50,282 bases of DNA. Source: Candidatus Micrarchaeota archaeon. GTDB taxonomy: Archaea; Micrarchaeota; Micrarchaeia; Anstonellales; JAGGTN01. Position numbers and translations under genes: made by a program. The DNA lies in the NCBI GenBank assembly GCA_021163645.1, contig JAGGTN010000020.1, positions 1-50,282 of the forward strand. Direction: 5' to 3'. The notes below the pieces were generated by a model that was given only the letters and a program-made list of their open reading frames with translations, searched no databases and had not been told where the DNA came from. Shown here piece by piece: positions 3 to 11,577 of the stretch. Each line of letters begins with the position of its first letter. Position 1 is the stretch's first letter.

Positions 3-3000
3 ACACCAGACAATCCTAATGATAGAGTATATCTTGAAGCTGTTGTGAATGTTGCTAATGCTGTTGAAGATTGTACTAACGGTGTAGATGACGATGGAGA
101 TGATTTGGTAGACTGTGAAGACCCTGATTGTGCGGATGATCCAGAATGTCAAGTACAATGTGAATTAGAGTATATCTCCCCAACAGAAGGTCCTGAGAGT
201 GTTGCAATTAAGGGTAGAATTTCTGGTATGGAACCGAACGAATCCTATACGATTAAAGGCTTAGACAAGAACAATAATGTTTGTTTATATGCTGAAAATA
301 CAGTAAACGATTTTGGTATTGATGAATTCGGAGAACGGATTTCCAATGCTATTTGTTATTGTGATATTTGTGCAACAGGAAAACTGAGTAATTGCACTAC
401 CAATACTTTAAGGTATAAGGTCATTCAAGAAACAACCTGTAACGACACCGTAGACAACGATTGTGATGGATTGGTAGACTGTGAGGACTCAGATTGTGCG
501 GATGATCCTGCTTGTCAAACACCAGAATGCTGCGATCTTGATGCTGTAGATGGATCAGGAGATACCCCTGGATGTGGCAGTATGTATAAATCAGGAGATA
601 CATATTACATAAATAATGCAAATGATGTAATAAAATTGTGTAATAAAACTTATACTCGTGATTTATCAGGAGATAATACTTCTGTTATTGAGATAAATGG
701 AGCAAATGTTGTTCTTGATGGAGGTGGGTCCATCATAAAGCAATCTAGTTATCCTGGACTTGTTGAAATTTATGGTGTAGTAGTAAGAGAAAGTGGTGTC
801 AATGCAACCGTTAAGAACATACATGTTGAAAACTATCCGTTCGGAATATCTAGTTATGCTAATGACACAAAAATAATTAACAACAAAATAAAAAGTGCTC
901 ATTGGGGTATTAGTACTGTTGGTTCAAATGTGATTATTTCAAATAATATTGTTTCTGAAACATACTACCAAGATTACGGTGATGGAGGCTCAGCCATTTT
1001 TGTTGGAGGAGGTGCTCAGTACTGTCAAGTCACTAATAATGAAATAACTGATGGTGTTGTTGGCATAATGCTTGGTGAAGGTGGTGCATCATTTAATAAT
1101 ATATCAAATAATAACGTCACAAACAATACATATATAGGAATAGTTCTTGGACCTATTTCATCCGTTTATAAGAATACTCTAAACAGTAATTTTGTTTGTG
1201 GTAATGGATATCAGGTTGTTCCAGAGTCTCCTGGTCTAGAAGGCGATGTTTATGATAACGGGAATAATAATACATGGATTAATACTACTTGTGATGTTGA
1301 CAGTTCTAAAACAGGAATATGCATAAATCCTTGTCCATTATCAACGAATGAAACAAGTTGTGATGATGGTATAGATAACGATAATGATGGATTGATTGAT
1401 TGTGAAGACCCTGATTGTGCGGATGATCCTGCTTGCCAAGTACCAGAATGCTGCGACCTTAATACAATGGAGGGCTGTGATAATGTTACAAAAATTAGTG
1501 ATGATTACTATGTGAATGGGGAGACTCTAATATGTCAGAATGAGTATAAACTGAGTGATCTTAATGGAGACGGTGTTTTAATAATAAATTCAAGCTCAGT
1601 TGTATTAAAATGTGAAGAGGGGACTGTACTACGAGGCGATTCAAATTGTGGCATTGGATTGGTAAATGAATATGAAGATGTTATATTGATTGGCTGTGAG
1701 TTCAAAAATTATACGACGGGTGTACTCTGGACTGGTGATAATGGACGTATTGATGCTAACTCCTTAGTATTCAATTATGTTGGTTTACAGATGTCTGGGG
1801 ATAATAACCAGATTACTTATAATATAATGGATAATAATATACAATTTGGTTTATCGATTGGTGATACTTCTGGTAATCAGTTTATTGGTAACAAGATCAG
1901 AAATAATGGTCAAGAAGGGATATTTACAGTCACTTGTAGAGGAAAACTGTGTGTGTTAGATACCTTACTCAGTACCAACGAGGTATGCTATAATCCAACA
2001 GATATAGATCTTTCTGTAAGTGTTGCGAATGCATCGGGCAATAATAAATGTGATGTTTTAGTTGATAAGGGAAGTAATAATCAGGTTACCTGTTCACAGA
2101 ATTGTTCAGCACCACCTCAACCGACCTGTGTGGTACCGACCGACGGCATGCTGATAAACGAGAGTGTAGTATTGTGTCCAGGAGTTTATAATCTGCCTAA
2201 CGGAATTAAGATAAACGCTGATAATATTGTTGTTACTTGTAATGGAACTACTTTGAACGGCACGGGTTCTGGGTACGGAGTGGAAAATACGGGGCATAGT
2301 AATGTTACTATCAAGAACTGTGTTATAATAGAATACGGATATGGTGTGTACTGGGAAAATGCGAATTATGGAACCATATTTAATACAACGGTCCAAAAAT
2401 CAGGTCAAGGTATCTATTTAAGGGAATCTTCTTATAACAATGTTCGAAATAATAACGCAAGTTACAATACTCTTAATTCAGAAAGTTGTGGGATTGCAGT
2501 TCTTGGAGATAATAACAATCTAACTGATAATGTTGCTCATAACAATGTTTACTATGGTATAATAATAGAAGGAGTTGGCAACACTGTCGCGGGTAACACT
2601 TTAAGAAATAATCTGGCAGGAGTGGTAGTTCAGAGTATCGAGAGAGTATCTTCTAATAATACTCTTGTAAACAATAATATTACTGAAAATCAGTATGGAA
2701 TAGGTATTTCTGATTCCGTTGGCAACTATATTCATAGTAATTTTGTATGTGATAATAAGAATGTGGACATAACACTTTCTGCTAATACTTCTGGTAACAC
2801 TGGTGACAACACCTGTGATAAATTACAGGATGATGATTCCAATCAGGTAACATGTAGCAAAGGATGTACCCAACAGGCATGCTCTCTCTTAGTTTCACCG
2901 TCATCAGCTTACGTTGGCGAAACAGTGAAGATAAGTGGTAGCGGTTTTGCACCAAACTCTGACATAACTCTCGAGAACAGTTGCGGTGGGACGACGACGA

Positions 3001-6000
3001 TTAAATCAGACCAAAACGGTAACTTTGTCTATCCGTTCGCTACGAACTGTGGAATGCTCGGAACATGTACCGTTAAAGCTTACGATGATTTCTGCGAGGC
3101 CACGGGCACTTACACGGTCAAAACGCAAGCTGAGGTTTGCGATGACGGTGTCGACAATGATTGTAACGGAAAAATAGACTGTGCTGACCCTGCATGCATC
3201 GGGTCTGCTGCATGTACCTTCGAGGTATCCGATTGTTTCACTATAAGAAATTCGAACGGTGGGACCTGGGTACTCAAGTCGGACATAAAAGCAAACGATA
3301 AATGTATAGAACTCGGTTTAAAGCCTGGAGCGGTGGCAGTCATTCGCTGTGAAGGTCATACAATAACCGTTAATACTACCGGTAAAACGGATGCCCATGC
3401 GATAAAAGTCTTCAGTGAACAGACAAGGGATGCTGATATTAAATTAGAGAATTGTAATATTAAAATAGTTGGTAATGGTAACGGTAATGCTGTTTGGGCC
3501 TTCAACCTTAACAAGCTTGAGCTTTATAGTATCATTGCAGACGTGGCTTCTGATAACAGTTATCCAGTTTTGGCGCAGTATATTAGGAACTTGATTGCAG
3601 AAAACCTTAACATTACTCACGATGGAGACAACGCTACGGCGTTCAAGGTGCAAGAAATATCTAATTCAATAGATGTAAACAATGTCCAACTCACCAGTTC
3701 AGCTAACATCAAACAAGGTGATTTCAGAAAGAGCGTGTTTGTGAGTGACGTACATCCAGATCCTTCTCTTCCATATAAGAAGAGAAGAATATCAAATATT
3801 TATGAGCATACTAAGTTTAATAAAGCAGTAATCCTAGATTCAAGCAACTTGGTGTTGAACGATTGGAAATTCCATGATCATCAGGATGAAGGTCTGGCGA
3901 TATTGGGTAAATCATCAAATATAGAAATGACCAGATTCAATCTTTCGAATAATAATATAGGTTTATACATCGGACAAGATGTGGAAAACGTATCTATTGA
4001 TTCTTCATACATGTGTAATAACCGTGAGAAGGATGTATTATCTGCTGATATTTCTGCATTAAATGTTGGAGCAGATGTTACGTGTACAAAATCTTATCCA
4101 GAAAACATCTGTCCGAAACAATGTCCTATGGAGGATACTGATGGTGATGGAGTGCCTGATGACCAGGACAATTGTGTAAAGGTCTACAACCCAGACCAAA
4201 AAGATATTGATGGTGATGGATTGGGTGATGCCTGCGATAATTGTGTGGATGTTTACAACCCAGACCAGATAGATAACGATGGTGACGGTCTCGGGTACGC
4301 ATGCGAGCCCGGTGACCCGAACGTTTGCGATTACACGTTCGACTGTGATGGTGACGGAGTCTGTGACGGTCCACGTTCACCAGAGGCACCTGCAGTCTGT
4401 GGCAACGGAATCTGCGAGTCTGGTGAGGATTATACTACTTGTCCCTCAGATTGTCCTGCTCCATCATGCAAAGATACAGATGAAGGAATCGATTATTATA
4501 CCTCTGGTTCAGTTATGACGTCCTCGGGAAAGGAGTTCAAAGATTACTGTTTGGATAACAACAATCTAATGGAGTATGCGTGTAACCCAGATGGTAGCGA
4601 AAGCACTTATCAATACGATTGTTCAAAAGAAGGTTTAATATGCCAGGACGGTGCATGCGTTAAAGGAGCACAATGCATTGAAGGTGCGTCTTGCTCGAGC
4701 GATGATGATTGTTATGGTGGAATATGCATATTAACTTCGTCAGATGATATATGCTACGCTAAACCTATTTACTCTGATTCTGATTGTAAGATGTTCTGTA
4801 ACAATTTCTCTGGACTCAACGAATACAAATGGGATGGTGCTGAATCATGCGAATGTTACGGTTCGATAACAGAGGATGAATGCGTTGAGTCGGCTGCACA
4901 GTATGGTTATGGATACTCTTATTTCCCTGGAACGACAACAGGCACATGCGACTGCCCAATAGAGTGTTTTGAGTTGCCTTATTATGACTGTGAAAGGACT
5001 TCTGAATGCAGATGGTGTAATGGAGCATGTTTTTCATCAGATACAATATGTCAAATAAAAGTATGTAGTGGTGATAAACCAATAACGTGCTATGATCAAG
5101 CATGTTCTGATCATCAAGAAACTTACATACGTCAGACATGCATTGCCGAGGGTGAGGAGTGTAATACAGAACTGGTTGATTGTGGTACTTCTCCTATTTG
5201 CGGTGATGATGTTTGCGAAATTTATGAAGATTATAATAACTGTCCAGAGGATTGTCCACTGCCTGAATGTTCTGGTACACAGACAGATGATTGCTCCACA
5301 TTACAGGTAACGAATCCGAAATCTGAATGCCAGAATTATTATTCAAAGTCTGGGTTCCAGTGTACTGTTAACAAGGATGCAACTGGATGTATGGATAGTG
5401 AACAATGTACAGTTAAACTTTCTGAAAAAGAGATTGTTAGCTTAGAAAAAGGGAAGGTATCAAACTTGTTTAACCTATTCACATTACCTTTCATTTTCGG
5501 TTTAGGGGTGTTTATGATGAAAAGGAAAAGGAAACTGTCTTCCTCACTTTTAGCACTGGTAGTAGGGCTGATGTTAGTAACTTTTATTATAGGAACAGTG
5601 AATGCTGCGCTTCCAGAATGCTATGGTGGTGAGTCTAAGTCATGCAAAGAGATAACAGATGAAAAGACTTGTACTAATGCTTATGTTGCCTATAACAATA
5701 CATATTACCAATGCGAATGGGATCCTGTCAACTATCTTTGTCTCCTCAATACTATACCAGAGCACGAATGTGCGCCGCCTGCCCAGCAACAAGAGATATG
5801 TGATAACGGTGTTGATGATGATAGTGACGGGTTGATTGATTGCAAAGACCCGGACTGTGCAGATGATCCAGCATGCCAAGGTTGTTCACAATACACTGAT
5901 GAAACATCGTGTAACAATGACCCAAACTGTGAATGGTATCCTGGAACTCCTGAGTATGTTGGATGCGAAGGTGAAGCTAAACATTGCTCTGTGTTCTCAA

Positions 6001-9000
6001 ACGAAGATGAATGTTTGATGCAGAAGGGATGTTCATGGTTAACCGAGTCATTGAGTTATTATGCATGCATCGCCCAAGGATACTCCTGGTGCGAGTTTGA
6101 TGGTAGATGCGATTCCGAAGGCCCATGCACTAGTATTCTCTGTAAGGCATTAGCTAAATGTGAAGACCCAGTAGATTGTTCTGAGGTAACTGATCAGTCG
6201 TCTTGTGAATCCTACAGTACCTGTGCTTGGGACTCTGATAAAGGAGTATGTTATGAAGAGGTATTGTGCAGATCATACAAAGATGAAGATTCATGCACTA
6301 CGGCGGGTTGTAAATGGAAAGTAGTCAACTACTACGCACCTTGCACAGAAGTATGCTCAGATAACACGTCTATATGTGTCAAACAAAGCACAACGTGTAT
6401 ACCTGAGAATGAGACTGTCCAACCTACACCTGTCGACTGCAACGCTTCTCCACCCTCTGGATGCACTGGTGAACCGTTGAGTTGCTCAGCTGTAAGTAAC
6501 GAGAAAGAATGTATCAACCAGATGGGTTGTAGTCCAAAGTACAAGACTATTAGTGGGTACTGTGCAGAGAAACCTTCTTCAACATGTACATCTTCACCAA
6601 GCGGTAAAGACGAGTTCTACAACGAATATCCGTACCCATCTGATATTAAACCACCTATTGATGTGTACGGTGCGCCTATATGTATAGATGATGATTATTG
6701 CGACTTAAACTGTTTCCTCAATGCTTCACCAGATTATCCAGGTGCGTTAACATATCCAATTTGGGATTCTGATTGTTGTCAAGATAATGATAAGGACGGT
6801 TATACAGGTTCAATACCTCATGAAGCACCGTCAGAATTCCAATCATATTGTACTGATGATTGTGATGATTATAATGCAAACGTTCACCCCGGAGCAGAAG
6901 AGTTGTGTAATGCTATAGATGATGACTGTGATGGTTACGTTGACATGTTCCCGGGGACGAGTGTCATGCCGAAGGACTGTAAGCAGTGGAGTAATGATGA
7001 AGCTGCGTGTTTAGAAAACTCTGACCAATGTACTTGGGCAAGCAAGTTTACCGGTTGCGACCCGGTTAAAAAAGAATGTTCTGTTTATTCTGATAACGAG
7101 TCGTGCGAATCAGACGTTTTCTGTGATTGGGTGGTTACACCTGAGACAGGTTCGTGCGTAGCACCTGTGGAATGCAAAAAACTTGAAGACGAACAAACAT
7201 GTTCCCAGTATCCGACGTGCGCATGGGAACCGAACCAACAGGTATGCTATAAGGCGGTTGACTGTACAGGTTATAAAACAGAAGCTGATTGTGAAAATGC
7301 GGGTTGTACATGGCAGGTTAAACCAGCCAGGGAGTATTGTGGTTATGATTTAGGTATAGAAACCTTCTGTAAACAATGGACAACCACTGACGAGTGTAAC
7401 AATGCATTGTACGAAGGAGTGAACGTGTGTCAAGCAACACAGGACACGAGGTGCTATAACAACTGTTATGATATAACCGATCAGGGAACATGCGATACAA
7501 CAGAGTTCTGCGCATGGGTAGGCTCAGGAGGTACCTGTTATGCTGACTGTTCTGGTTTCACTGATGAAGCAACATGTAACAAGTATGACCCATACTGTAA
7601 ATGGGATGGTAAAGAATGCGTGGACTCAGGCTTAGGAGAATGCACAGAATACACGGATGAAAAAACCTGTACTTCTAACTCACTGTGCAAGTGGAAATCT
7701 GAGACCGTAGGATCATGTCAGCCAGCACCAGAGGAAGGCGGGCCCGTACCTTTAACTCAGTACTGTTATACCGGGCCAAAAGGTACCGACGGTGTAGGTA
7801 TATGTCATGGCGGGACACAAATATGTACTTCTGGTGCATGGGGTGTTTGCGAAGATGAAGTTACTCCTCAGGTTGAATTGTGTGATGGAATAGATAACGA
7901 TTGTGACGGGAAGTATGATGAGGATTTTGATAAAGACAATGATACAATTACTATATGTGGAACGTATACAACAAATGGTTCTTCTGTAGAGCCAGATTGT
8001 AATGATAATGATCCTAACGTGTGGCATCTTATGAAAGGATATGCCGACAATGATCATGACGGTTATGGTACTGGTGAACTGTTGGATGTATGCTCAGGGT
8101 TGACATTACCTATTGGATATTCAGACATTTCTGGTGATTGTGATGATGATATGAGTGATGATCCAACTGATATAACCTGCCCATCTGATCCAAGTAATTG
8201 CACTGAGGATACTGGTGAATGTGCTATATGCATACATCCTGGAGCAATGGAAATACCGTGCGATAACATAGATCAAAACTGTAACGGACACTGGGAAAAC
8301 AAGACGTTTACTTCGCAGTTATTAGTCAAACCTGAAAAGGATAAGAAATATCATAAGTGTAGACCCTGTAGTACGATTCATTCATTGACAATAAAATATA
8401 TTGGTGATGATAATGCAACAGAGGTATATGTTTATGATAAGAAGAATAACTTATTAGGGATGTATCCAATTGTTAACAGAACATTCACAGTAACAAATCT
8501 TGCCAAACCTGAAACAATATTCCAAATAGGATCTTATATACAGTGGATTCATACAAGTTGTTCTAGACCGATCGGTCCTGGGTATTTGTTTGGCAAGCTT
8601 AAGATAATCTCATGGAATGCTGCAGATCCAAATACTTGTGATGGCGATGGAGGATCCAAGTATTATGATTGGACTGGCAGTAAATGGAAGTTCTACAATG
8701 ACTATTATCCAGATGATCTAGTCATTGGAAATAATGAAATAGGGTTGGCAGATTTTGATAATGACGGCCAAGATGAACTCATAGTTAAGGAGAAGAAATA
8801 CAGACATACTGATGATATTAATACATGGTTCTATGAATGGGATGGTGATTCATGGGTTGAATATGAACATTCGACCAATGATGGTTTGCCATTACAGGGC
8901 AGGTATGAAGTAGCAGCATGTGATATATTAGACAGTAATGGACAACCTGGTACAGATGGTGTTCCAGAGCTTATAATAACAAGAGAAGGGTTCAGTAAGG

Positions 9001-10568
9001 AAACTAAATTCTATCATTGGAATTCTGGTACTGAAAAATGGGATTATGTAACTGGTTCAACAAATACAGGCATATTCTTAAAAGGCGGTGACACTGCATG
9101 TTTTGATATTGACAATGATGGGACAAATGAATTAATCGTCAAGAAGAAGCATAAGGATAGATTCGAAGTATATGAATGGGATGATAATCATTGGACAAAT
9201 GATGGAACATATACACATGATAACTTGATAACCGGGCATAGTGAGATCGCTGGTGGTAATGTTAGAGGTTTTGAGACTGTGTATGTTGATTCAGATGACC
9301 AGCCAGATACTGATGGTGACGGTGTATCTGATTGTGTGGATTATTGTCCAGAAACTCCTGGAACAGTTTATCATGGTTGTCCTGGTGCAATCACAACCAC
9401 TGCTAACATATATGATATCGGTTGGCATGGAGTAAAAGGGCATGAACCAAGGGATGGAGCTGAAGATGATGTGTATGAATTGGATTGTGTAAATTCAGTG
9501 CTTGGTAATTCAACAATTGCATCAGAATATGGATTTAGTACAACAACGTGGAAAGATTTGACAAGCCATATATATTCTCACAAAGACAAAGAATTAAATG
9601 CGATAAGAGAAAATTGCCCCTCATGGACATGTGAGATGGATGACACAGGTCAATGTACTGTAGGCGTTCCAAATGGGGAGTATGTTGTATTCTCACCTTT
9701 TGAAACAACGCAAATGGTACCCCATGGTGAAAGAGTATGTTATCAAAAATGTACTGGTCAACCATATAAGAAAGGAAGACATTGTTGGTGGAAGAGAGAC
9801 CACAGGGAAGGTAACCATAAGTATTGTACAAATAAATGTGGGATTAAGTGGACTGTTAAACCAGAGCAGTTTGATTTCTCAGTTTATAGGCCATCGTTAA
9901 CAGTGTCAAACTCTCTTGAGACAGCGCATTTAGACTATATTAAGACGCCATGGGGTAAGTTAGTGCCAGCAGTATTCATGGGCACAATTGTGGGTTCTGA
10001 ACTGAATGTGATTCCTTCAGAATACCTAATTGAAGTGCCAGAAGGTGAAGTGATACCTGATGATATTGCAGAGGGTGATGTAGATTATATATATCCAATG
10101 TTGTTTGAAGCTGACTCTCCGTGGGAAGTCAATGTATCAATAACACCGCCAGAAGGGTATCAAGTGGCGACGGATACTGAAGCAGAGATTAATAATTCGG
10201 TTGATAGTATCGTAATTGGGATTGTCGCAAATGTAACAAATGGAACTACTCCTGCAATGATTACAATGGCAATGGTACCATCATCAATAAACTTAATGAG
10301 AGCTGTAGTGCAGGCTAAACATCCATGGGAAACAAAATGGAAAGAACAGACTATTGATGTTAAGACAACGTTCGAACCGCAACCAAAAAAGACAGAAAAA
10401 CCATTGTTTGATGCAGGTTCAATAATAACAGTAGTGGTTGCACTTCTTGTACTTGTCATGATAGGAGTATGGTTAAGGCGTAGTACTATGAAGATTAAAC
10501 CGCATTCTAATAACTCAAACCTTGTAAAAACAAAGAAAAAGGTAAAGAATAAGAGAGGAAAAAAATAA
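3..10568 (+). CDS. Giant cysteine-rich mosaic surface protein / putative adhesin, 5'-partial (frame open to window start)
   Basis: The frame is uninterrupted from nt 3; the track start at 45 is an internal GTG with no upstream stop. The translation shows five [27 protein letters not shown] modules and three clear plus one divergent block of NNxIxxN-type parallel beta-helix (PbH1/NosD-like) repeats. It also shows TSP-type-3-like DxDxDG..NC repeats, a dozen or more CxxYxDExxC..CxW repeats, MopE-like DCDDxxxxxHPGAxExC..DxDCDG motifs and FG-GAP/VCBS-like DxDNDGxxELIV repeats. It ends in a hydrophobic helix plus a Lys-rich tail. Confidence 0.9.
   Translation, partial: [3521 protein letters not shown]
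72..152 (+). repeat. Asp/Cys-rich module copy 1 ([27 protein letters not shown])
   Basis: Read directly from the translation; shares the gattgtgcggatgatcc core at DNA level with the other copies. Confidence 0.8.
438..518 (+). repeat. Asp/Cys-rich module copy 2 ([27 protein letters not shown], followed by TPECCDL)
   Basis: Read from the translation; a 23-nt exact DNA match (gattgtgcggatgatcctgcttg) with copy 3. Confidence 0.8.
1359..1439 (+). repeat. Asp/Cys-rich module copy 3 ([27 protein letters not shown], followed by VPECCDL)
   Basis: Read from the translation; same supermodule order as copy 2 (module, ECCDL, beta-helix block). Confidence 0.8.
3138..3215 (+). repeat. Asp/Cys-rich module copy 4, divergent ([26 protein letters not shown])
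   Basis: Read from the translation; precedes the fourth beta-helix-like block. Confidence 0.7.
4134..4304 (+). repeat. Thrombospondin type-3-like calcium-binding repeats inside the giant ORF
   Basis: [57 protein letters not shown]: tandem DxDxDGxxDxxDNC..NPDQxD units. Confidence 0.7.
5457..5606 (+). other. Internal hydrophobic helix / KRKRK / signal-peptide-like helix junction within the giant ORF
   Basis: [55 protein letters not shown]. The in-frame ATG ATG at 5514 is preceded by GGGGTG (5505-5510), which resembles the GGTGA-type RBS upstream of other genes in this window. Confidence 0.6.
5641..7700 (+). repeat. Array of ~20-aa three-cysteine repeats, C-x2-[YFWL]-x-[DNST]-[EDQ]-x2-C-x4-6-C-x-W
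   Basis: Examples: [209 protein letters not shown]..QCEW, plus variants. Confidence 0.75.
5799..5879 (+). repeat. Asp/Cys-rich module copy 5 ([27 protein letters not shown])
   Basis: Read from the translation; first recognisable module after the internal TM junction. Confidence 0.8.
8740..9150 (+). repeat. FG-GAP/VCBS-like repeats (beta-propeller-type) inside the giant ORF
   Basis: [43 protein letters not shown] and [18 protein letters not shown], spaced about 60 aa apart. Confidence 0.55.
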
Positions 10569-10719: not shown

Positions 10720-11577
10720 ATGAAAAATTATGATATTTCATTTTCTACCACAACTTTTTTAAATATTAAAAGGCATAATATTAGTATGAAACAAGTATTT
10801 AAGAAAGATCTGGGAGTCGAAGAAGGTTCTAAACAAACTGAAGCCAGACAAAAAACACCAGAGAAAAATCAATTTATAAATACGAATCCAATTATGGATT
10901 TTGTAGATAAAGGCTTTTTAAATACTATTACCAGAAAGAGAAGGAAAGGGAATATAGTGGTGAGAATCGCAGAAATTGCTATGCTTACATTTGCCACAAT
11001 TACTGCAGGTATTTCGCTCACAAAGGTTCCATATTTCTATTTCATGACAAAGAACATTGATATAAAATATGGTGCTGAGGTAGCTAAAAAAGAATGGGAT
11101 TTTGACATATATGCCCAATATCTTTTATATCATTATGGGTTAACAGGGGGAATAAAAGAATATTATAAAATTATTCATGAGTATAACAGTTATGATTGTT
11201 GGCTAAAAAGGTTTAAGGAAGCAGGAATTCCGGTCATTCAGGATTTTGACTCATTGTTTACATATATAAACACCAAACCTAGAGTATTTGTACAGTTTTC
11301 TGCGAGGGGATGTCACGGATGTCTTCTCTCAATGCCTTATGTTCTTCAATATGCAAAAAAACATCATGAAGTTTTCTTTGTATACTGTAATCCCTACAAG
11401 AAAATTAATGATGAAGTTGAGGATACACTAAAATCATGGAATATTTATGCAATTCCGACATTTATCTATTTTGAAAATGGAAAGGAGGAAGTTAGGTTCA
11501 TTGGTGAAGTAAGAGATACTACTGCAATAATGAAAATTGTAAACAAAAAGATGAATGATAACGATGAACAACACTGA
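10720..11577 (+). CDS. Membrane-anchored thioredoxin-fold protein (CHGC active-site motif)
   Basis: The C-terminal 110 aa match the thioredoxin pattern: VFVQFSARGCHGCLLSMPYV..NIYAIPTFIYFENGKEEVRFIG, with CxxC and cis-Pro IPT. One hydrophobic helix (IAEIAMLTFATITAGISL) follows TRKRRKGN. The start codon is uncertain; 10783 is an alternative. Confidence 0.7.
   Translation: MKNYDISFSTTTFLNIKRHNISMKQVFKKDLGVEEGSKQTEARQKTPEKNQFINTNPIMDFVDKGFLNTITRKRRKGNIVVRIAEIAMLTFATITAGISLTKVPYFYFMTKNIDIKYGAEVAKKEWDFDIYAQYLLYHYGLTGGIKEYYKIIHEYNSYDCWLKRFKEAGIPVIQDFDSLFTYINTKPRVFVQFSARGCHGCLLSMPYVLQYAKKHHEVFFVYCNPYKKINDEVEDTLKSWNIYAIPTFIYFENGKEEVRFIGEVRDTTAIMKIVNKKMNDNDEQH

Follow-up and report, generated by a model that had tools for sequence, protein, structure and literature searches.

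We analysed a 50,282-nt stretch of DNA from a Candidatus Micrarchaeota archaeon (GenBank assembly GCA_021163645.1, contig JAGGTN010000020.1), referred to as the window, and focused on the giant surface-protein gene at its 5' end. Inside this gene, at positions 5457-5606, a helix resembling the C-terminal anchor of a surface protein is followed, without a stop codon, by five basic residues and a helix resembling a Sec signal peptide. The window is the entire contig C13 of a genome of 895 kb in 57 contigs, with 34% GC and a completeness of 88.6%. By GluRS, the nearest genomes are Micrarchaeota and Iainarchaeum metagenome-assembled genomes (41-46% identity). The host is a DPANN archaeon related to Micrarchaeota and Iainarchaeota, and none of the other species representatives searched belongs to the family of the source genome.

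The open reading frame (ORF) of the giant protein runs from 3 to 10568 without a stop and is truncated at its 5' end by the end of the contig. The first 127 nt of the window are exactly the last 127 nt of contig C40 (C40:14047-14173) and are shared with no other contig. Joining C40 to the window yields a full gene of 10,950 nt encoding 3,649 aa, whose true start lies on C40, 128 codons upstream of the window's first codon. The N-terminus read from C40, MADGKQKMFWIFGLFGLMTLLLLAGC, is a lipobox signal peptide (LLLAGC), which indicates that the first half of the protein is exported; the same peptide is also present in the 3,649-aa database records. The assembly break at the 5' end of the gene lies close to a repeated Asp/Cys module.

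Hydropathy was scored with a 19-residue Kyte-Doolittle scan (KD19) over the window ORF. Window residues are numbered from the window ORF and full-length residues from the start on C40; an earlier, preliminary description of the locus had counted from a GTG at 45. The features of the gene are as follows.

3..10568, plus strand: giant surface-protein ORF, an open frame continued upstream on contig C40
5463..5519, plus strand: helix 1, NLFNLFTLPFIFGLGVFMM, putative stop-transfer anchor of the first unit (unit A); full-length residues 1949-1967, KD19 1.66, with five basic residues next
5505..5510, plus strand: GGGGTG, Shine-Dalgarno-like, complementary to the 16S rRNA 3' end GATCACCTCC
5514..5519, plus strand: ATG ATG pair, with spacers to GGGGTG of 3 nt (5514) and 6 nt (5517); ATG 5517 is a candidate start, internal or relic, for the second unit (unit B)
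5520..5534, plus strand: KRKRK, putative cytoplasmic loop; basic tail to anchor 1 and at the same time n-region to the signal peptide
5535..5606, plus strand: h- and c-regions of the internal Sec-type signal-peptide-like segment, LSSSLLALVVGLMLVTFIIG-TVNA; KD19 2.54
between 5606 and 5607, plus strand: signal peptidase I site VNA-A, predicted by reading the sequence
5607..10418, plus strand: ectodomain B, Cys-rich, with the Asp/Cys module, MopE-type motifs and FG-GAP-like repeats
10419..10568, plus strand: C-terminal anchor helix SIITVVVALLVLVMIGVWL, basic tail of about 30 residues and stop; KD19 2.88

An anchor-like and a signal-peptide-like helix meet inside the gene

On rereading, positions 5457-5606 translate as ...SLEKGKVSNLFNLFTLPFIFGLGVFMM-KRKRK-LSSSLLALVVGLMLVTFIIGTVNA-ALPEC..., and the junction proper, at 5463-5606, as NLFNLFTLPFIFGLGVFMM-KRKRK-LSSSLLALVVGLMLVTFIIGTVNA, then ALPEC. 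The hydropathy scan found two neighbouring peaks here, at window aa 1821-1839 (KD19 1.66) and 1848-1866 (2.54), in addition to the C-terminal anchor at window aa 3473-3491 (2.88) and one marginal segment at window aa 3320-3338 (1.44). The 3,649-aa protein has no internal hydrophobic helices other than these two. Among the genome's 342 ORFs of 300 aa or more, this is the one case of an isolated helix pair lying internally between long non-hydrophobic stretches. A chance origin of 19 and 22 hydrophobic residues split by five basic ones within a secreted ectodomain is ruled out, and the feature is real.

Read directly, the second helix and its surroundings have the make-up of a class I Sec signal peptide, MKRKRK / LSSSLLALVVGLMLVTFIIG / TVNA-A. 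The c-region has Gly at -5, Val at -3 and Ala at -1, and is followed by Ala rather than Pro at +1; by this reading VNA-A is a textbook signal peptidase I site. The loop carries a charge of +5, compared with about +1 for the upstream flank and a net negative charge for the downstream flank, a distribution that would place the loop inside and both halves of the protein outside. A single-sequence AlphaFold model put helices at window aa 1818-1840 and 1847-1875, separated by a non-helical six-residue loop at 1841-1846; the block-mean predicted local distance difference test score (pLDDT) of helix 1 was about 68-78. The preliminary description had given the same translation, the same likeness to a Sec signal peptide with a VNA-A site and the same positive-inside orientation, and all three are borne out by these readings.

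On our best reading, the gene encodes two units. Unit A, full-length residues 1 to about 1972, would run from the lipobox signal peptide through an ectodomain of 1,920 aa to an anchor helix at its C-terminus. Unit B would open at about residue 1967 with a Sec-type signal peptide (MKRKRK-h-region-TVNA), continue as a Cys-rich ectodomain of 1,600 aa and close with an anchor helix and basic tail. The ectodomain of unit A is built of beta-helix/NosD blocks and thrombospondin-type-3-like repeats. In both units the signal peptide is followed by an Asp/Cys module (C.xG.DxDxDGxxDCxDPDC), the first copy of which lies about 120 residues past the lipobox Cys in unit A and about 65 residues past VNA in unit B.

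A putative translation start signal at the joint

We evaluated the start signal at the joint against the genome as a whole, where GGTG is found upstream of about one third of crude gene starts. Spacers between GGTG and ATG numbered 104 at 5 nt, 45 at 6, 21 at 7 and 5 at 3, so that 170/220 fall at 5-7 nt. This peak indicates that GGGGTG fits ATG 5517, which heads MKRKRKLSSS, and not ATG 5514. The preliminary description had reported GGGGTG 3 nt before ATG 5514 and likened it to a GGTGA-type ribosome-binding site. The motif is indeed located there (5505-5510), with a second ATG at 5517; its assignment to ATG 5514 does not hold, as a spacer of 3 nt is rare genome-wide (5/220) and the motif suits ATG 5517 at spacer 6.

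The combination is strongly enriched at gene starts, with GGTG at spacer 5-7 preceding 170/655 first ATGs (26%) versus 39/4,955 internal in-frame ATGs (0.8%). Within the giant ORF, ATG 5517 alone of 36 ATG codons has GGTG at this spacing, and the gene's own ATG on C40 likewise has GGTG at spacer 6. The motif is also an unusual way of encoding its two residues: Gly-Val is written as GGGGTG, with the minor codons GGG and GTG, in 11/785 pairs (1.4%). The folding energy from -25 to +25 around 5517 was -4.0 kcal/mol, compared with a mean of -3.96 for true Shine-Dalgarno-led starts and -6.7 for internal windows, and the site is less structured than 82% of internal windows. This low RNA structure weakly supports a start site at 5517. 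Together, the sequence statistics argue that the joint is a former or present translation start and not a by-product of coding for a membrane helix.

Relatives of the protein and the single-unit plan

We searched for orthologues, fused or split, on both sides of the junction. None was found in 40 relatives searched with 700 aa across the junction, in 176 same-order genomes searched with the last 721 aa of unit B, or in a representative set of 1.84 billion proteins searched with 1,101 aa across the junction. Likewise, a collection of 5.8 billion proteins (queried with unit B, the junction region and the C-terminal region of unit A) contained no orthologue beyond the same protein, and metagenome contigs queried with the junction region contained none. 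In all of these searches the matches were to the protein itself or to shared repeat modules (Asp/Cys, thrombospondin-type-3-like, MopE, CGNGxCE...CPxDC). Within the genome, a short-query BLAST revealed no paralogous signal peptides or anchors.

We then compared the unit plan of the giant protein with that of large surface ORFs sampled from four same-order genomes. All sampled ORFs with a complete N-terminus open with a signal peptide, often a lipobox (SFGC, FSGC, VMGC), and three (3,330, 1,651 and 1,054 aa) have a C-terminal transmembrane (TM) helix with a basic tail. No internal junction was present in this sample. These surface proteins are unrelated to the giant protein and are each built as a single unit, with a signal peptide or lipobox ahead of an ectodomain; because the relatives follow this plan, the giant protein reads as two single units placed head to tail.

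Lipobox-like starts were frequent in the giant surface proteins L020, L021, L022 and L024 (genomes G021, G001 and G005). Judging from these N-termini, lipobox-type anchoring may be widespread in this DPANN order, although no Lgt or Lsp homologues are known from archaea.

Processing enzymes and alternative signal classes

The sole candidate for signal peptidase I in the genome is a protein (C6, locus L015:1234-2313; 359 aa) with the Sec11-type motifs SCSMLP, GDIIHR and TKGDNN. Its NCBIfam match is divided by a long Asn-rich insert. No match to archaeosortase (PF09721) was found in the genome at its completeness of 88.6%. None of the sorting-domain models matched helix 1, the best being NCBIfam PTPA-CTERM at E=0.06, with 13.5 bits against a cut-off of 29. 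With neither an archaeosortase nor a sorting-model match found, signal peptidase is left as the one processing enzyme in evidence.

Three other assignments of the junction were considered and rejected. An archaeosortase- or exosortase-type sorting signal (PGF-CTERM, PEF-CTERM) lacks both a model match and a PF09721 gene. A class III (type IV pilin-like) signal calls for a [KR]-[GA] cleavage motif directly ahead of the hydrophobic segment, where the sequence instead reads ...RK-LSSS and lacks Gly or Ala at -1. Membership in the anchoring module of the streptococcal Zmp proteases was dismissed as there is no LPXTG near the junction (...NLFTLPFIFG).

The gene downstream of the giant ORF (10720..11577, plus strand) encodes a thioredoxin-domain protein (Pfam Thioredoxin, E=4.7e-7). 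This neighbour is kept in contigs from JGI and Logan. It is plausible, from its domain and position, that the thioredoxin-domain protein serves as an extracytoplasmic disulfide helper for the Cys-rich ectodomains.

Parallels in other proteins

Anchor-to-signal-peptide junctions of this kind have precedents. In the Bradyrhizobium japonicum FbcH cytochrome b/c1 precursor and in viral glycoprotein precursors, one ORF gives rise to two membrane proteins through an internal signal peptide that is cut by signal peptidase on the outer face of the membrane. These are unrelated proteins from other lineages, and cleavage is demonstrated there, whereas we infer it here.

Among the 212 proteins retrieved through the shared repeat modules, which are unrelated and mostly bacterial, four (P0022, P0044, P0094 and P0204) have an internal TM helix, an Arg cluster and a signal-peptide-like segment with an AxA site. 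P0094 is a fusion of an MtsC-like protein of the MYXO-CTERM family with a TraB-like OmpA-domain protein. In P0044 the MYXO-CTERM model matches three stretches, and the best match is internal. The four resemble the giant protein in having the three-part junction inside a long surface protein. They differ in being bacterial, in being homologous to it only in the shared repeat modules, and in that a myxosortase would probably process their first signal. None of the four has a Met at the junction (0/4), and the bacterial hairpins therefore do without a retained in-frame ATG. It seems that sorted surface proteins have repeatedly become fused to their downstream neighbours.

Two further systems offer partial comparisons. 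In the streptococcal Zmp proteases, two hydrophobic segments follow an anchor signal, and the latter of the two is proposed to be a further signal peptide that signal peptidase cleaves (PMC3518915, citing Bender and Weiser 2006). The Zmp proteins share with the giant protein the logic of an anchor helix, a loop and an internal signal peptide that restarts export, and differ in being bacterial and in carrying these elements close to the N-terminus, where they follow an LPXTG sortase motif and a short first segment. The giant protein, in contrast, is archaeal, has no LPXTG motif or sortase, and presents a 1,920-aa ectodomain before the hairpin. The second system is a Haloferax volcanii substrate of ArtA, in which a strain-specific fusion puts PGF-CTERM in mid-protein and both processed fragments were detected experimentally (review PMC6098224). 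Here too an archaeal surface-protein gene is fused in frame to its downstream neighbour, leaving a C-terminal anchoring signal in mid-protein. In the Haloferax fusion, however, archaeosortase A cuts a tripartite PGF-CTERM signal and the partner, a NifU-domain protein, lacks a signal peptide of its own, whereas in the giant protein no sorting model matches, no archaeosortase was found and the partner brings a Sec-type signal peptide. The anchor-to-signal-peptide design is thus already known, and the giant protein adds an archaeal example that still bears a ribosome-binding site at the joint.

A proposed in-frame fusion of two surface-protein units

We propose that two complete surface-protein units are joined in frame within one 3,649-aa gene, with the topology, cleavage and restart described below, and assign this reading a probability of roughly 0.6. 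Two-gene ancestry, cleavage and internal initiation are inferred, as is the topology, which follows from standard Sec logic. The N-terminal signal peptide would start Sec export of ectodomain A, which helix 1 and KRKRK would halt, leaving the KRKRK loop in the cytoplasm. The retained signal peptide, with helix 2 as its core and its basic N-flank inside, would re-enter the translocon and restart export of unit B, until the C-terminal helix and its long basic tail halted transfer again. Both giant ectodomains would then lie outside in a three-helix topology. In this arrangement VNA-A would face outward, where a Sec11-type signal peptidase could probably cut after VNA, which would give two separately anchored proteins in a 1:1 ratio. 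Internal initiation at 5517 is possible as well, and the Shine-Dalgarno motif with ATG 5517 may let unit B be translated alone.

The preliminary description had offered gene fusion and a deliberate helical hairpin as two competing explanations. Its fusion is favoured by the Shine-Dalgarno motif and ATG at the head of the signal peptide, by the lipobox of unit A and by the single-unit plan of the relatives. The choice between the two falls away, since such a fusion necessarily yields a hairpin and the hairpin is no alternative to it.

Several observations weigh against the proposed two-unit fusion. Neither side of the junction appears to have an orthologue, fused or split, beyond one near-clonal population. 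As no orthologue was found, the case for two-gene ancestry draws only on internal evidence, and because all assemblies come from that one population, they provide no evolutionary depth. Helix 1 has only moderate hydrophobicity (KD 1.66) and includes one Pro and two Gly, and the AlphaFold model as a whole is of low confidence, with a mean pLDDT of 49. TIGR02228 matches the candidate signal peptidase in two separate stretches (28 and 24 bits), both below the cut-off of 51.85, and a Pfam scan of the candidate gave no peptidase match. Finally, at about 20 residues the internal signal peptide has a long h-region, and in model systems a long h-region favours an uncleaved signal-anchor.

This last point, the main argument against cleavage, also speaks for an unlikely competitor, a permanent, uncut hairpin. 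The product would then be one 3,649-aa chain with its two ectodomains side by side on a three-helix base, VNA would be idle, and the Shine-Dalgarno motif and ATG would be a relic or a coincidence. The helix-loop-helix of the AlphaFold model agrees with it, and the two halves, with their common Asp/Cys module family and similar Cys-rich composition, could act jointly. Against it stand the textbook signal peptidase I c-region, which a plain membrane helix would not need, and the placement of the Shine-Dalgarno motif and ATG exactly at the head of the n-region, for which the background is about 1%. Those same start-site features invite a reading in which the ORF contains an operon: initiation at GGGGTG/ATG 5517 would supply most of the unit B made, as an independent secreted protein, and the read-through fusion would be a by-product, minor or neutral, of the recent loss of a stop. 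The Shine-Dalgarno statistics, the minor-codon motif, the low local RNA structure and the matching GGTG at spacer 6 before the gene's true start all fit. We nevertheless consider it improbable, as ribosomes translating unit A would traverse the site on the same mRNA, and as the four bacterial parallels keep the hairpin without a junction Met (from protein sequence only, so that other start codons are possible there).

It would be far less probable still that the junction is an artefact, with a sequencing or assembly error having erased a stop or a frameshift between two genes. The repeated modules of the giant gene did break the assembly at its 5' end, and a TGATGA lies in the +1 frame over ATGATGA (5511-5523). 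However, the same 10,950-nt gene with an identical junction is present in a JGI contig (sample 3300017593; 3 single-nucleotide polymorphisms relative to the window) and in a Logan contig (SRR14000031; 1 such difference). The junction is also found in all four full-length protein records (4/4), of which three are near-identical (JGI/IMG, Logan) and one is an ENA record with a longer start call. Both alternative frames carry stops on either side of the junction, which rules out a recent frameshift, and the junction DNA occurs once in the genome. Because the contigs of other assemblies agree and the other frames hold stops, an assembly or sequencing error is very unlikely, and the artefact reading is already largely refuted. 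We observed that dropping one T of the TTT run before the ATGs would restore a GTG-TTA-TGA stop overlapping an ATGA start. Speculatively, a one-base insertion could have created the fusion from such an ATGA start/stop overlap; since A is common after ATG, the TGATGA overlap carries no evidential weight.

Implications

A bolder form of the two-unit fusion, which we regard as tentative and on balance doubtful, is that this one ORF acts as both a polyprotein and a two-cistron operon: its product would be threaded twice through Sec and cut by signal peptidase I about 2,000 residues from the N-terminus, and unit B would also be made alone from ATG 5517. If true, this would let the cell set the A:B ratio from 1:1 upward. 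We came across no published case of a DPANN polyprotein being processed by signal peptidase, and no open-access report of prokaryotic internal-signal-peptide polyproteins.

Without relatives, the giant protein is a poor model for settling the question, and its interest is modest as the design recurs. Anchor-to-signal-peptide junctions are seen repeatedly in unrelated bacteria and archaea, and they appear to be a common route to prokaryotic 'polyproteins', one that gene annotation ignores. Giant surface proteins are the main candidates for the attachment of DPANN archaea to their hosts. For the one described here, the reading and annotation of its architecture depend on whether it is one chain of 3,649 aa or two anchored proteins made together.

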